DNA from: a virus
Lineage: Duplodnaviria > Heunggongvirae > Uroviricota > Caudoviricetes
Direction: 5' to 3' (one strand)
IMG/VR virus record: IMGVR_UViG_2541047898_000011
Length of the DNA stretch: 12,185 nt
Of the stretch, positions 5,431 through 6,642 are shown piece after piece (the stretch's first letter is position 1; each line of letters begins with the position of its first letter). The notes under the pieces are model-generated. The model made no database searches. It was not told where the DNA came from and worked only from the letters and a program-made list of their open reading frames with translations. A program made the translations under genes and the position numbers.

Positions 5431-5521
5431 CGCATTCACCACAACGCTAAGGATTCTCTCTGGTTGAAAATACTTAGCTGTTATGTGCCTGTCTTTTCAC
5501 CACTTCAGGCTCGGTGGTATC
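5431..5521. repeat. Repeat A copy 1 (about 91 bp direct repeat, identical to 6086-6176)
   Basis: Exact direct repeat read from the sequence; lies immediately upstream of a small plus-strand ORF. Confidence 0.85.
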
Positions 5522-5554
5522 CTTTTAAGCCCGTATACATAAAAGGAAAATCAA

Positions 5555-5800
5555 ATGACTTTTGATGAAAAAGAACTTGATAATGCAATTAATAAAATCA
5601 TCGTAACGTCGCTCTTTTCCTGTCTCAGCGACACTCAGCAGAAACAGTTCTACGAATCGGCTTTCAACATGATCGAGCGTTGTTGTTTCTGCGATGCCGA
5701 CGAGTTACCTGAAAAAATCAGGAAACAGTTGGCTGATGCTCTTCGAGTGCGACTTTCTGACCAATTTTCTGAAATGTGCTCTCCGAATTTGGACAAATAG
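5555..5800 (+). CDS. Small cysteine-containing protein, cassette 1 cargo, antisense to the early operon
   Basis: 81 aa; ATG with AGGAAA upstream; preceded by repeat A; followed by a hairpin at about 5812-5837. Confidence 0.4.
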   Translation: MTFDEKELDNAINKIIVTSLFSCLSDTQQKQFYESAFNMIERCCFCDADELPEKIRKQLADALRVRLSDQFSEMCSPNLDK

Positions 5801-5993
5801 AAAAAGGCCATTTCCATTCAGGGTCTGATGGAAATACTTCAGCCTGTTCCAAAGCACGGCGTAAAGAGAACACAACTCCAGCCATAATCTGATGTTTCCC
5901 ATTGGTCCAGCTATCGCCGCTCTGATCTACAGGGGCGGCTATGTCGTATGACCAAACGACTTCACAGTTATTGTTTAAAATCTGGACTTTCAT
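5718..5993 (-). CDS. Hypothetical ORF starting inside repeat B copy 1 (MKVQILNNNCEVVW...)
   Basis: 91 aa; the nearest GGAGG is 12 nt from the ATG (poor spacing); overlaps the 3' end of the plus-strand gene by 83 bp; a minus-strand hairpin plus T-run lies inside it. Confidence 0.2.
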   Translation of the reverse strand: MKVQILNNNCEVVWSYDIAAPVDQSGDSWTNGKHQIMAGVVFSLRRALEQAEVFPSDPEWKWPFSICPNSESTFQKIGQKVALEEHQPTVS

Positions 5994-6014
5994 TTTGTTC
6001 TTTAACCTCCAGAT
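5952..6014. repeat. Repeat B copy 1 (about 63 bp direct repeat, identical to 6580-6642)
   Basis: Exact direct repeat; on the minus strand it carries the last codons and stop of an upstream ORF, GGAGG, and ATG plus 14 codons. Confidence 0.85.
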
Positions 6015-6085
6015 ACGGGCGTTTAATTGCCCCGCCGAACAGCTCTTTTCCGCAATAGCTGCAATGTCTTTCGCGCATCAGCCTG

Positions 6086-6176
6086 CGCATTCACCACAAC
6101 GCTAAGGATTCTCTCTGGTTGAAAATACTTAGCTGTTATGTGCCTGTCTTTTCACCACTTCAGGCTCGGTGGTATC
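6086..6176. repeat. Repeat A copy 2
   Basis: Identical to 5431-5521; immediately upstream of the second small plus-strand ORF. Confidence 0.85.
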
Positions 6177-6210
6177 TTGGTGTTTTCATATAGCCAAGAA
6201 GGAAATAGTT

Positions 6211-6402
6211 ATGACCAAAGAAGAAAAAATTCTTTATTTATTCCAACTATCGGTTAAGACTCACACTGCATATCAGACTGCTGCCATGACATCAGATAAA
6301 AATTACAGTACGTCAGAAAACCCGATAGACGACATAAGCAAGCTTTACGATAAGTTCGAAGCACTACTCGATAAAAAGTTTGCTGAGGCTGGGCTTGAGT
6401 GA
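6211..6402 (+). CDS. Small protein, cassette 2 cargo, antisense to the early operon
   Basis: 63 aa (MTKEEKILYLF...); SD AGAAGGAAA upstream; N-terminus resembles the cassette 1 protein (MTFDEKEL vs MTKEEKIL). Confidence 0.4.
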   Translation: MTKEEKILYLFQLSVKTHTAYQTAAMTSDKNYSTSENPIDDISKLYDKFEALLDKKFAEAGLE

Positions 6403-6570
6403 TTGTTGAATAATCGACAAAACCCAACTTAAATTTTCGTCAGTGGGCTCGATGCCATGTGCGGTGAGCTCACTTTTCAAAACTCCAAGCAATTCAGAGC
6501 TGATTTTCAATATATCTGCTTGATTTCTAACTATTCCCACTTTTTCCTCCCTTGGTCTACGCGCGGTCAT
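6364..6570 (-). CDS. Hypothetical small protein, cassette 2
   Basis: 68 aa from ATG 6570; alternative GTG start at 6540 with GGGAGG at 6 nt (59 aa); overlaps the plus-strand gene by 39 bp; preceded in-frame by a 15-codon peptide from repeat B. Confidence 0.3.
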   Translation of the reverse strand: MTARRPREEKVGIVRNQADILKISSELLGVLKSELTAHGIEPTDENLSWVLSIIQQSLKPSLSKLFIE

Positions 6571-6579
6571 GTTTTACGC

Positions 6580-6642
6580 CCAAACGACTTCACAGTTATT
6601 GTTTAAAATCTGGACTTTCATTTTGTTCTTTAACCTCCAGAT
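6580..6642. repeat. Repeat B copy 2
   Basis: Identical to 5952-6014; contains the stop codon and last four codons (KSGG) of the zinc-finger gene. Confidence 0.85.

Follow-up and report, generated by a model that had tools for sequence, protein, structure and literature searches.

The window, i.e. the whole stretch of 12,185 nucleotides that was analysed, belongs to a lambdoid prophage of the SfV/SfII/CPS-53 type from E. coli. Positions 5431-6642 of the window lie in a slot that is bounded on one side by cI and PL, and on the other side by an STnc100-like leader RNA ahead of yfdP-yfdQ-yfdR. The features of the slot and of its anchors are collected in Table 1. The PL/OL region contains repeated operator-like sequences of the form TTGC..ATnTCGCA, and position 6922 is where homology to other immunity types breaks. 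The zinc-finger ORF, which has its stop codon inside repeat B2, is annotated in two homologous loci (L001 and L002) and is missing in most related loci, these having the B' [45] PL type. The G+C content is 0.38-0.45 over positions 5400-6700, compared to 0.53-0.58 at 5000-5500.

Table 1. Features of the slot and its anchors, given in window coordinates.
Feature	Position	Strand	Evidence
yfdP, first conserved protein gene left of the slot	4755..5117	-	phrog_204 matches residues 101-225 of a 226-aa ORF
STnc100-like structured RNA, allele v1, early-left leader	5252..5475	-	Rfam RF02076, 43.4 bits, E 8e-7
A1-left, precedes and starts the STnc100-like RNA	5431..5486	-	sequence reading
A1-right, conserved 31-nt block and TATC	5487..5521	+	comparison across phages
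Covarying hairpin upstream of ORF81, TCCTTTTA 5520-5527 / TAAAAGGA 5540-5547	5520..5547	+	covariation
ORF81, rightward gene of cargo 1	5555..5800	+	phrog_3311
ORF91, SfV orf33 family, leftward gene of cargo 1	5718..5993	-	phrog_3195, E 4e-65
Repeat B1: GGAGG, ATG at 5993, N-terminus of ORF91	5935..6014	-	repeat comparison, sequence reading
Proposed crossover segment: spacer and first 20 nt of A2	6015..6105	-	alignment
A2-left, precedes and starts the STnc100-like RNA, with GTTGTGGTGAATGCG at 6086-6100	6086..6141	-	repeat comparison and alignment
A2-right, 31-nt block GCCTG-N8-CCAC-NN-CAGGC-N3-GTGG, then TATC	6142..6176	+	comparison across phages
Covarying hairpin upstream of ORF63, TCTTGG 6175-6180 / CCAAGA 6194-6199	6175..6199	+	covariation
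ORF63, rightward gene of cargo 2	6211..6402	+	phrog_2605, E 1e-33; annotated in SfII
ORF68, leftward gene of cargo 2	6364..6570	-	phrog_15476, E 7e-50; phrog_2982 weakly
Repeat B2: GGAGG, ATG at 6621, 14 codons of the ORF91 family	6563..6642	-	repeat comparison, sequence reading
ClpX C4-type zinc-finger ORF, 67-73 aa, optional first gene of the operon	6630..6851	-	Pfam PF06689, E 1.4e-10
PL/OL region and leader of the early-left operon	6852..7080	-	between the cI terminator and the first leftward ORF; position inferred
Terminator-like hairpin and T-run, directly after cI	7081..7098	-	terminator annotated at the equivalent place in SfV and SfII
cI-type repressor gene, 230 aa, right-hand anchor of the slot	7118..7810	-	ORF; XRE family / cI repressor annotation in homologous loci L002 and SfII

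Two repeats, A and B, each occur twice in direct orientation. The A copies (5431-5521 and 6086-6176) are 91 nt long, 100% identical and spaced by 655 positions. The B copies are 80 nt long, 93% identical and 628 bp apart, with identical cores of 63 nt at 5952-6014 and 6580-6642, and a spacer of 71 bp (6015-6085) lies between B1 and A2. An exact repeat of 91 nt cannot be chance in 12 kb, and the 31-nt core motif of A gave 2 matches vs 0.00 expected in shuffled sequences. Comparison of cargo 1 (5522-5934) with cargo 2 (6177-6562) by blastn gave just chance words of 7-13 nt (E >= 0.8), and the best tblastx match covered 18 amino acids (E 0.075). The first-pass annotation had described identical repeats surrounding unrelated cargo, which was borne out by the repeat comparison as well as by blastn and tblastx. 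Its description of B as a GGAGG and an ATG with 14 codons, running into a 91-aa ORF in copy 1 and stopping after 15 codons in copy 2, was confirmed. That B also holds the 3' end and stop codon of an upstream minus-strand gene is correct for B2, where this gene is the zinc-finger ORF, and incorrect for B1, where the equivalent bases follow a truncated fragment of the RNA leader and are entered by one ORF only (40 aa, 5968-6090), which uses a different frame.

In B1, a 7-bp hairpin formed by ATCTGGA (6008-6014) and TCCAGAT (5980-5986) surrounds the ribosome-binding site and the ATG. In B2, the 15-codon remnant of ORF91 occupies positions 6577-6621 and ends with a stop codon at 6574-6576, with the ATG of ORF68 following 3 nt after the stop.

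Each cargo holds one leftward and one convergent rightward ORF, the overlap being 83 nt for ORF91 and ORF81 and 39 nt for ORF68 and ORF63. Homologues of ORF91 (58-68% identity) are found in Salmonella and in Rac-like prophages, homologues of ORF81 (56-64% identity) in Klebsiella, Salmonella and Yersinia, and the pair is conserved in other lineages at approximately 70% nucleotide identity. Loci at 70% identity were used for calculating pN and pS, resulting in pN 0.22 vs pS 0.64 for ORF91, and pN 0.20 vs pS 0.85 for the part of ORF81 that does not overlap. Among near-identical loci, counts by codon position and of synonymous and nonsynonymous changes held too little variation to tell coding ORFs. 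ORF68 matches the C-terminal domain (about 50 aa) of a family of about 120 aa, and has 41% identity to the C-terminus of a 121-aa ORF from Edwardsiella phage EPP-1. Homologues of ORF63 at 36-73% identity are present in Kluyvera, Serratia, Buttiauxella, an Edwardsiella phage and metagenomes, and the pair of ORF63 and the ORF68 domain recurs in EPP-1 and 11 other loci. Judged by such comparisons of sequence, the two genes of each cargo form a convergent pair that is conserved and overlaps at the 3' ends, and the four cargo ORFs are shown to be coding.

Searches for a function were carried out with several methods. PADLOC gave 0 matches to any model for 10 cargo proteins, i.e. no recognisable defence system. 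For the cargo ORFs, Pfam returned nothing informative, only weak matches to LprI and HTH_17, PHROGs returned function-unknown families alone, and the PDB sequence search nothing significant. A literature search by sequence words gave no relevant paper. ORF81 is predicted by AlphaFold2 to form a three-helix bundle (pLDDT 82) and carries an invariant RCCxC motif; Foldseek with this model against PDB and BFVD gave no match below E 0.6. The model of ORF91 (pLDDT 43) was unusable.

The variation of the slot was assessed on approximately 200 related loci listed from IMG/VR. These loci were picked by exact words from A or B, and frequencies among them are rough. The left flank, yfdQ-yfdP-RNA-A, is constant across the loci listed, and the slot to the right of A is hypervariable, having at least 11 unrelated fillers. 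In most fillers, a plus-strand ORF begins 34-75 nt past the 31-nt block. Cargo 1 alone and cargo 2 alone are each found with three different right-hand contexts, and all flank combinations occur. There is also an empty form, in which PL' runs directly into a complete leader RNA followed by yfdP. Among 48 PL'-type loci long enough to be scored, 32 are empty and 16 have a truncated leader followed by B and cargo; a wider grouping of 60 PL' loci gave about 42 with an intact and about 18 with a truncated leader. The joints between leader and B in the PL'-type loci with a truncated leader are all alike, with ...CGT followed directly by ATCTGGAGG.

The tandem arrangement is rare and was found in 9 of 2,397 matching E. 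coli genomes, all nine of them complete and drawn from different studies and serotypes. At least 6 distinct IMG/VR contigs and a RefSeq locus (L001) have the tandem as well, at 0-2% divergence and in company of two different immunity regions, and the repeat copies are slightly diverged in some tandem lineages from IMG/VR. Matches to the cI-adjacent slot as such occur in about 44% of complete E. coli genomes, with up to 4 related places per genome. A tandem of 93% identity on a 37.7-kb 'plasmid' of strain CX04 was rejected as an older lineage: the record is full of frameshifted genes and is probably an error-rich assembly of an excised phage.

On the left side of the slot, the copy of the STnc100-like RNA in the window (allele v1) scores 43.4 bits over the full RF02076 model, where the gathering score is 47, and the orthologous copy in L106 scores 49.1 bits. 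Its closing helix is formed by GUUGUGGUG (5437-5445) with CACCACAAC (approximately 5322-5330). A promoter-like combination of AAGACA (5490-5495, overlapping A-right) and TATTTT (5467-5472) separated by 17 nt has a score of just 8/12, which is below what the scanner reports. Rfam searches of the window and four loci identified no family for A-right, B or the hairpin, the STnc100-like RNA alone being found; a match to mir-5880 was discarded as spurious.

The segment 6015-6105 corresponds to the first 86-91 nt, approximately, of a second allele of the leader (v2), cut between ...AAACGCCCGT and ATCTGGAGG where B1 joins. Following PL', the v2 leader is intact in about 40 loci and truncated in about 18. 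The v2 segment is 97.8% identical in P1-like phages, and in their copy the closing helix shows a compensatory change. The Rfam model does not detect allele v2, of which the spacer is part, at E <= 0.01. By the alignment, the 71-bp spacer is the truncated form of a second leader-RNA allele. A CSYCGKEL motif in the 40-aa ORF of the spacer was considered as the remnant of a zinc-finger gene, and this was rejected because the spacer aligns along its length with allele v2.

The first-pass annotation had suggested a module-swap hotspot with conserved junctions rather than ordinary gene duplication. The census agrees with the hotspot, as related prophages carry cargo 1, cargo 2, at least nine other fillers or nothing at this place, and ordinary duplication is contradicted by cargos that are unrelated and flanks that reassort freely with them. 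Neither of the two observations that it had named as counting against itself was made: instead of a single unit always with the same cargo there are at least 11 alternative fillers, and instead of a segmental duplication including the cargo there are unrelated cargos and a spacer that is a different allele. Its remark that such hotspots often hold defence or anti-defence cargo gained no backing from PADLOC, Pfam or the fold search. Its proposal of integration at conserved junctions found no support. The junctions appear to be functional sequence, the boundaries vary by cargo type, and the empty site is without A-right and B. The annotation had also overlooked the second, plus-strand convergent gene in each cargo, the spacer as a truncated RNA-leader allele, and the tandem as a rare secondary recombinant.

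The right part of A has a distribution of its own. A-right accompanies rightward cargo genes in unrelated phage lineages, including contexts without A-left, and is found, over many prophages, in front of 25 or more different small ORFs that run rightward. The hairpin that follows has the ribosome-binding site within its 3' arm in the case of ORF81, and is itself followed by the ribosome-binding site AAGGAAA in the case of ORF63. RNAalifold on a MAFFT alignment of the leaders gave no consensus because the 3' arms were misaligned, and a per-sequence helix search with shuffled controls was used in its place. At least 6 consecutive Watson-Crick pairs at a fixed position were found in 17 of 24 distinct leaders, compared to 1.3% of the shuffles, and at least 8 different stem sequences are used among the distinct leaders.

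The upstream cassette ends 33-45 nt ahead of the ATG and contains TGgTAT(N)(N)T, in which the last T (-7) is invariant, with a -35-like TTTTCA 18 nt upstream. A promoter scan of both strands of A gave no site of at least 9/12, and what the scanner lists as the sole 'terminator' in A (5499-5518, plus strand) corresponds to a stem of the block. The -10-like TGgTATCCT shares bases with the 5' arm of the hairpin, and a promoter drawn here is incompatible with a hairpin drawn in the rightward mRNA. Beta-type modules keep the 31-nt block and lose the -10-like hexamer, and the block is therefore not simply a promoter. No terminator-like site for the rightward genes was found on the plus strand between 5800 and 7100, where these genes run into the convergent leftward gene.

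From these observations we consider it likely that 5431-6642 holds two unrelated small accessory ('moron'-type) modules stacked in a variable slot beside the repressor gene. The identical flanks are best regarded as common expression signals, at which related phages probably swap modules by ordinary recombination. A seems to be the 5' region of the leader RNA (A-left) fused back-to-back to an upstream cassette (A-right), and B is in all probability the ribosome-binding site, the start codon and the first 14 codons of the leftward ORF91 family. We favour, with reasonable confidence, functional sequence over attachment sites as the nature of both repeats. Exchange of modules at such a slot is a known kind of phage mosaicism and does not overturn current ideas on phage evolution.

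A module would have three parts. The first would be a small leftward ORF expressed via the PL transcript (either ORF91, or ORF68 preceded by the 15-codon remnant of ORF91), the second a convergent rightward ORF with an overlapping 3' end (ORF81 or ORF63), and the third a portable upstream cassette for the rightward ORF, consisting of the 31-nt block, the covarying hairpin and the ribosome-binding site. Homologous recombination inside the common stretches would let related phages exchange such modules. In lysogens, the cassette would provide for expression of the rightward genes, which convergent PL transcription would switch off once the prophage is induced, and the gene pairs may act together, combining a lysogen-expressed accessory or exclusion function with an early-lytic partner.

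A more far-reaching reading is that the block, the TA and the hairpin at the ribosome-binding site make up a portable, undescribed cis-regulatory cassette that couples antisense accessory genes to PL, the pairs being toggles; we regard this as doubtful. The cassette may in that case be active in lysogens, and become silenced or processed once leftward transcription passes across it. Were this reading true, the convergent pairs may serve as lysogeny/lysis toggles in which, e.g., an early-lytic antidote is paired with a toxic or exclusion function. Beta-type modules have CCCCAACAAC..AAGGAUUC leaders to which the adjacent STnc100-like RNA is near-complementary at its 5' end (GAAUCCUUAGCGUUGUGGUGAAU), and the RNA could therefore act on these leaders in trans.

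The conserved part of A (block and hairpin) might instead act mainly as structured RNA within the leftward PL transcript, where it could be an element for processing or stability, or a pseudoknot that precedes the leader RNA; the rightward ORFs would then depend on another signal. We find this unlikely. The interleaved stems of the block are invariant while the loops vary in sequence, and by 1 nt in length, and in our reading of the sequence the minus-strand loops (L1 of 3-4 nt, A-rich L3 of about 8 nt) fit a classical H-type pseudoknot. However, compensatory changes in the two interleaved stems were found in 0 of 10 pairs, and a Buttiauxella homologue (L217) breaks both stems and keeps TCTTTTCA-18 nt-TGGTATCCT, which is promoter-like. 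The reverse complement folds more stably in 55 of 63 leaders, but a G/U-rich minus strand alone lowers folding energies. Likewise, two substitutions in the hairpin stem (L345 and L364) are G.U-compatible on the minus strand only, but the wobble counts of 44 vs 27 are not decisive. Retention of the block by beta-type modules without the -10-like hexamer fits a leftward RNA as well, yet the distance and orientation of the block relative to the rightward ORF are always fixed.

Returning to swapped accessory modules with common expression signals, the tandem would have been born of one homologous crossover between two phages in the 91-nt leader segment 6015-6105. One parent would have had this segment upstream of its module (PL'-leader5'-B-cargo1-A-RNA), and the other downstream (PL-ZnF-B-cargo2-A-leader-RNA). 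Loci of both parent types exist. L100 and L106 match the window at 4700-6105 with 97.8-98.4% identity, L152 and L137 match it at 6015-6922 / 6015-6642 with 99.6-100% identity, and the two sets of matches overlap in 6015-6105. The direct repeats would then be by-products, and recombination between them could later delete the tandem back to a single module. The direction of this recombination history is one that we infer: the L106 type could derive from the tandem instead of the reverse, and A-c1-B-ZnF and A-c2-B-ZnF could be either parents or deletion products.

Site-specific capture of cassettes, integron-like or mediated by a recombinase, with A and B as attachment sites, is very improbable. 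It would account for the sharp right edge of A (between 5521 and 5522) among alpha-type modules (cargo 1, cargo 2 and L098), and for the left edge of the 31-nt block, which is sharp in dozens of contexts, the block also holding inverted repeats. Against this, no integrase or recombinase is found among the annotated genes from yfdQ to cro, and the prophage int/xis genes, further left, belong to prophage integration. The cassettes are not bracketed by inverted repeats. The cargo boundary varies, being at the ribosome-binding site/ATG, at codon 15 of ORF91 or within the ORF68 family, and A and B are made up of parts of an RNA gene, of an upstream region and of the N-terminal coding sequence of a gene. 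The joint between leader and B appears to be a single shared event, and the empty site, where PL' is directly followed by the RNA, contains neither A-right nor B, so that no hybrid site is left behind.

A tandem (segmental) duplication in situ, in which an A-cargo-B unit was copied and one of the two cargos was later replaced or diverged, is more improbable still. The layout is duplication-like, with direct repeats 655 and 628 bp apart and A copies without a single difference, but the cargos are without detectable similarity, and for each of them there are single-module phages with 98-100% identity. Instead of repeating the sequence adjacent to A1, the spacer represents leader allele v2, which is intact in other phages, and both single-module parent types exist with the common segment on opposite sides. 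An assembly artefact, in which reads of two related prophages, one per cargo, were merged into a chimeric tandem, could be imagined from the many E. coli genomes with two or more (up to 4) related places, but has a negligible probability given the tandem in 9 complete genomes and at least 6 independent IMG/VR contigs with small differences and two immunity regions.

Several known systems resemble the slot in part. Lambda rexAB and sieB, and P22 sieA and sieB, are exclusion genes expressed in the lysogen from within or beside the immunity region. The slot likewise holds putatively prophage-expressed accessory genes, placed between cI and the early-left genes or next to them; they showed no similarity to the exclusion genes in sequence or fold, and the orientation and the convergent-pair design differ.

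The morons of lambdoid phages reportedly became known through comparisons of HK97 and HK022, said to be those of Juhala et al. in 2000 and of Hendrix and colleagues. Like morons, the genes in the slot are extra genes that are present in some relatives and missing in others at exactly one position, they have a lower G+C content than their neighbours, and they would form a transcription unit apart from the surrounding operon and be expressed in the prophage. Presence or absence at one position and a differing base composition were thus both found, while a terminator of their own was not. Unlike morons, the extra genes here are antisense inside the early-left operon in convergent pairs overlapping at their 3' ends, and many unrelated cargos use one portable upstream cassette.

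Modular evolution of lambdoid phages is said to proceed via short conserved boundary or 'linker' sequences, a view attributed to Susskind and Botstein and, for HK620, to Clark et al. in 2001. The slot follows the same pattern, with unrelated modules swapped by homologous recombination at short conserved stretches and all combinations of flank and cargo. It differs in that the linkers can be assigned, to the 5' end of an RNA leader, an upstream cassette and a translation start, and in that one non-allelic crossover would have stacked two alleles in tandem. Integron gene cassettes also place unrelated cargos in tandem between repeated junction sequences, whereas here the cassette ends lack attC-type symmetry, attI is missing and no integrase is annotated from yfdQ to cro, the cargos have upstream signals of their own, and genes are found in both orientations.

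Conserved flanks with highly diverse cargo in the immunity-region neighbourhood of a temperate phage recall the hotspots of antiviral systems in P2 and P4 prophages and satellites (Rousset et al. 2022, PMC9122126) and repressor-adjacent defence genes such as BstA (Owen et al. 2021, PMC8585504). When the slot is held against the hotspots of Rousset et al. (2022), it has conserved flanks and many cargos but lacks recognisable defence systems; its small ORFs (58-193 aa), which occur singly or in pairs, gave no PADLOC match for the 10 proteins searched. Finally, the prophage sRNAs STnc100 (RF02076) and PasD have been linked to recombination between prophages (Zhu, Shabalina and Storz, bioRxiv 10.64898/2026.05.13.724894). 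The RNA of which A-left and the spacer are parts has the STnc100 fold and is also prophage-borne and multi-copy; in contrast, the window copy is just below the Rfam gathering score and forms the leader of the early-left operon rather than lying near Q and the lysis genes. An STnc100-like RNA as recombination substrate for the stacking of morons is previously undescribed.

The locus is a clean natural example of how temperate phages build mosaics, in which the recombination linkers are identifiable expression signals, and the empty site, the single-module forms and the stacked form coexist in sequenced genomes. The stacked form indicates that accessory genes can accumulate, rather than be swapped, through a non-allelic crossover within a short segment of an RNA leader. 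The slot is furthermore a compact catalogue of more than 25 uncharacterised small-protein families, which are easy to clone and screen (for superinfection exclusion, host modulation or toxicity) because one upstream cassette is common to all of them.

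The region has matches in thousands of E. coli prophages as well as in two Shigella phages, SfV and SfII. Read leftward on the minus strand, annotated homologues give the order cI, terminator, PL, an optional zinc-finger ORF, a variable region (the slot), yfdP, yfdQ, yfdR and further early-left genes. Downstream of the cI terminator there are operator-like repeats, TTGCACATCTCGCAA and TTGCGTATATCGCA, and the position of PL in this stretch is putative. A 313-aa helix-turn-helix (O-like) replication gene contains five to six 15-nt iterons (TCAAAATCTGACSCG-like), which show internal dyad symmetry and probably mark the phage origin; an Rfam 'mir-5880' match at the iteron site is spurious.

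Positions of the features discussed, in window coordinates
Feature	Coordinates	Strand	Remark
226-aa ORF	4755-5435	minus	start ATG inside A1
STnc100-like RNA	5252-5475	minus	Rfam
Repeat A1	5431-5521
Right part of A (block)	5487-5521
Hairpin copies	5520-5547 and 6175-6199		straddle right edge of each A copy
Cargo 1	5522-5934
Repeat B1, full similarity	5935-6014
Spacer	6015-6085		between B1 and A2
Spacer plus first 20 nt of A2	6015-6105
Repeat A2	6086-6176
Cargo 2	6177-6562
Repeat B2, full similarity	6563-6642
Operator-like repeats	6852-7080	minus
cI	7118-7810	minus	annotated homologues
O-like replication gene	9057-9998
Iterons	9345-9467	plus

A repeat finder reproduced the two A copies (91 nt, 100% identity) and the 63-nt identical core common to B1 and B2 as delimited in the first-pass annotation; the similarity of the B copies reaches further left, over 80 nt at 93%. 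The two cargos share chance words only and are unrelated, as had been claimed. B holds GGAGG, an ATG and 14 shared codons; in copy 1 the reading frame runs into a 91-aa ORF, and in copy 2 it stops after 15 codons. The claim that an upstream gene also ends within B held for B2, where a 67-73-aa ClpX-type zinc-finger ORF (ZnF) ends, and failed for B1.

About 200 IMG/VR loci (L numbers) were fetched by an exact core of A or B, and segments of the window were mapped onto them. Their left side is constant (yfdQ-yfdP-RNA-A). Between A and PL the commonest form is cargo 1 with a shortened B and without the zinc-finger gene, as in SfV; cargo 2 also occurs in that setting, as in SfII, and each cargo is found both with B-ZnF and with B-spacer. 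There are at least nine unrelated fillers of 0.4-0.9 kb, and a plus-strand ORF opens most fillers. Tabulated across relatives, the cargo between the conserved left side and PL varies and is not one fixed cargo.

A match was found in 2,397 of 5,426 complete E. coli genomes, the full tandem (A1-cargo 1-B1-spacer-A2-cargo 2-B2) in only 9. The tandem is also present in at least six distinct IMG/VR contigs and in the RefSeq locus L001, and it is joined to two different immunity regions, the homology breaking at 6922. In some tandem lineages the A copies differ by 1 nt and the B copies by 3 nt. From this recurrence in separate contigs, the two immunity regions and the slight divergence of the copies it follows that the tandem is real and inherited, though uncommon. 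A 37.7-kb circular 'plasmid' record of E. coli CX04 (L212, NZ_CP081716.1) contains the whole tandem at 93% identity together with many frameshifted genes; it is probably an excised circular phage, assembled with errors.

The STnc100-like structured RNA in the window scores 43.4 bits (E 8e-7; gathering score 47), and the orthologous copy in a related locus scores 49.1 bits, above the gathering score. STnc100 is a prophage sRNA related to PasD (bioRxiv 10.64898/2026.05.13.724894; PMC12370729). Repeat A covers the first ~45 nt of the RNA and the sequence preceding it. The first ~100 codons of the 226-aa ORF overlie this RNA, its PHROG match is limited to residues 101-225 (yfdP), and RefSeq annotates the stretch as a frameshifted pseudogene plus yfdP; this ORF is probably not a gene as such.

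Locus mapping placed the spacer with the first 20 nt of A2 in two further settings. In L100/L106-type phages it stands directly downstream of a different PL (TTGACA-17-CTACAT) and upstream of B-cargo 1-A-RNA, and in L152/L137-type phages between A and the remainder of the RNA. An alignment shows it to be the first ~86 nt of a second leader-RNA allele (v2; the other is v1). The closing helix GUUGUGGUG...CACCACAAC is altered on both sides, to GUUGUGAUG...CAUCACAAC, in the aligned P1-like copy. P1, RCS47 and JL22 have a segment with 97.8% identity to window 6015-6107, the spacer with the A-tail. This segment, at 1501-1593 in the P1-like phage JL22 (L205), overlaps the 3' end of plp. The complete v2 RNA domain is preceded there, on its own strand, by tRNA-Asn, tRNA-Thr and a tRNA-like remnant, and L205 has a further partial STnc100 match at 775-894.

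Loci in which the alternative PL (PL') meets the start of the RNA were scanned for and revealed an empty site, in which PL' leads straight into a complete RNA and then yfdP, with no cargo. This was the case in 32 of 48 scorable loci (~42 of 60 in another grouping), and the RNA allele was v2 except in two loci with v1. In the remaining 16-18 PL' loci the v2 RNA always breaks off at one nucleotide (...AAACGCCCGT|ATCTGGAGG) and continues into B with cargo 1 or 2; the joint therefore arose a single time, through an illegitimate event, and spread afterwards. One homologous crossover within the v2 stretch (6015-6105), between a PL'-leader5'-B-cargo 1-A-RNA phage and a PL-ZnF-B-cargo 2-A-leader-RNA phage, would give the tandem; it yields exactly the order of the window, to which each parental half has a match of 98-100%. 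The history could also have run in reverse, with the tandem first and the single forms arising later by A-A or B-B deletion. Whichever form came first, the recombination was homologous and took place at shared sequence, and we regard the tandem as a rare secondary recombinant.

The many alternative fillers and the empty site bear out the earlier suggestion of a module-swap hotspot with conserved junctions rather than gene duplication. The locus lacks the defining features of segmental duplication and of integron cassettes. It has the architecture of a prophage hotspot but not the defence content. It behaves like a moron-type accessory slot whose modules are swapped through homologous recombination where sequence is conserved, the pattern of classical lambdoid mosaicism.

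Repeat B provides the translation start for the ORF91 family. Where it follows ZnF or the spacer, a 7-bp hairpin (AUCUGGA...UCCAGAU) surrounds the ATG together with the ribosome-binding site and the stop codon of ZnF, an arrangement consistent with translational coupling to the ORF upstream. The commonest context, that of SfV, has a different upstream half and an ORF with 7 more codons.

Cargo 1 consists of two convergent ORFs with an 83-nt overlap, ORF91 (minus; SfV orf33 family) and ORF81 (plus). Both are open in Rac-like and Salmonella prophages at only ~70% DNA identity, and pN of ~0.2 against pS of 0.64-0.85 in the non-overlapping parts indicates that both are genes. Homologues of ORF81 reach Klebsiella and Yersinia and keep an RCCxC motif. 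Its predicted model is a three-helix bundle, for which a fold search gave no match; the ORF91 model was unusable. In L148 and L199 a ~1.25-kb insertion with transposase-like ORFs (290 aa, 75 aa) lies inside ORF81.

Cargo 2 pairs ORF63 (plus) with ORF68 (minus). SfII contains both, and its annotation in the fetched stretch covers ORF63 only. In Edwardsiella phage EPP-1 an ORF63 homologue of 40% identity faces a convergent 121-aa ORF, the C-terminus of which is matched by ORF68; this pair, too, is placed just downstream of the repressor. The ~50-aa C-terminal domain accompanies ORF63 homologues in 11 more loci. Given this recurring pair, cargo 2 of the SfV-type phages has the look of a knock-in that retained repeat B, with the first 14 codons of ORF91, and repeat A, with the upstream cassette. 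No Pfam or PADLOC family matched any cargo.

Repeat A is best described as composite. Among SfV-type loci only 5431-~5491 is universal, the last 30 nt occurring in two alleles. The right part, GCCTG-N8-CCAC-NN-CAGGC-N3-GTGG-TATC, is nearly invariant upstream of ORF81 homologues in lineages without the left part of A and without the RNA, and upstream of ORF63 homologues in Kluyvera, Serratia, the Edwardsiella phage and metagenomes. A pattern scan found it upstream of at least 25 different small ORFs; the DNA to its left is unrelated in all those contexts. The 31-nt block sits immediately next to CCGCCAAGACTACACACAGCA in some phages (L300, L354, L490 and the like). This sequence corresponds to window ~5296-5318, just past the closing helix of the leader RNA, and the module takes the place of the whole structured RNA domain.

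The four stem segments of the block are invariant, with no compensatory change; the loops are variable in sequence, and their length changes by one nucleotide. TA and then a hairpin follow directly, the 3' arm abutting or containing the ribosome-binding site. At least six consecutive Watson-Crick pairs were found at this site in 17 of 24 distinct leaders, compared with 1.3% of shuffles. The stems comprise at least eight different sequences, including TCCTTTTA/TAAAAGGA, TCTTGG/CCAAGA, TGCTGG/CCAGCA and TACTGG/CCAGTA; this covariation marks the hairpin as a real structural feature. An unrelated second upstream type, two sequential hairpins (GCCGGA...TCCGGC and CTCCAC...GTGGAG), takes the place of the interleaved block before ORF63 homologues in L304-L309 and L356.

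The end of the block would fit an extended -10 promoter for the rightward gene. In TGgTAT(N)(N)T the T, A and final T of the hexamer and the upstream TG are kept in every type I leader, and in Buttiauxella L217, the homologue that has diverged most, both block stems are gone and TCTTTTCA-18 nt-TGGTATCCT is kept. Against a simple promoter, the 5' arm of the hairpin overlaps the -10-like hexamer, so that a transcript started there would be without that arm, and the beta-type modules, found just right of A in loci such as L007, L013 and L449, retain the block and replace the hexamer; a perfect TATAAT often follows at some distance. For both reasons block and hairpin may act at the DNA level or in the RNA that leftward read-through from PL produces; folding energies and wobble counts favour neither strand decisively for the hairpin. 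In these beta-type modules the hairpin after the block has the loop CCCCAACAAC; next comes, in many cases, the perfect TATAAT, and then a second CCCCAACAAC leader ahead of the ribosome-binding site. Such motifs are similar to the complement of the sequence that starts the leader RNA (GAATCCTTAGCGTTGTGGTGAAT) and could be recombination scars or reflect an sRNA-target relationship.

The block-plus-hairpin cassette was absent from the Rfam matches and from the literature searched, and this portable cassette is the only element here that may be new. In the working model that we infer, a lysogen would express the rightward genes from the cassette; after induction convergent PL transcription would oppose them, and the leftward partner would be made only then.
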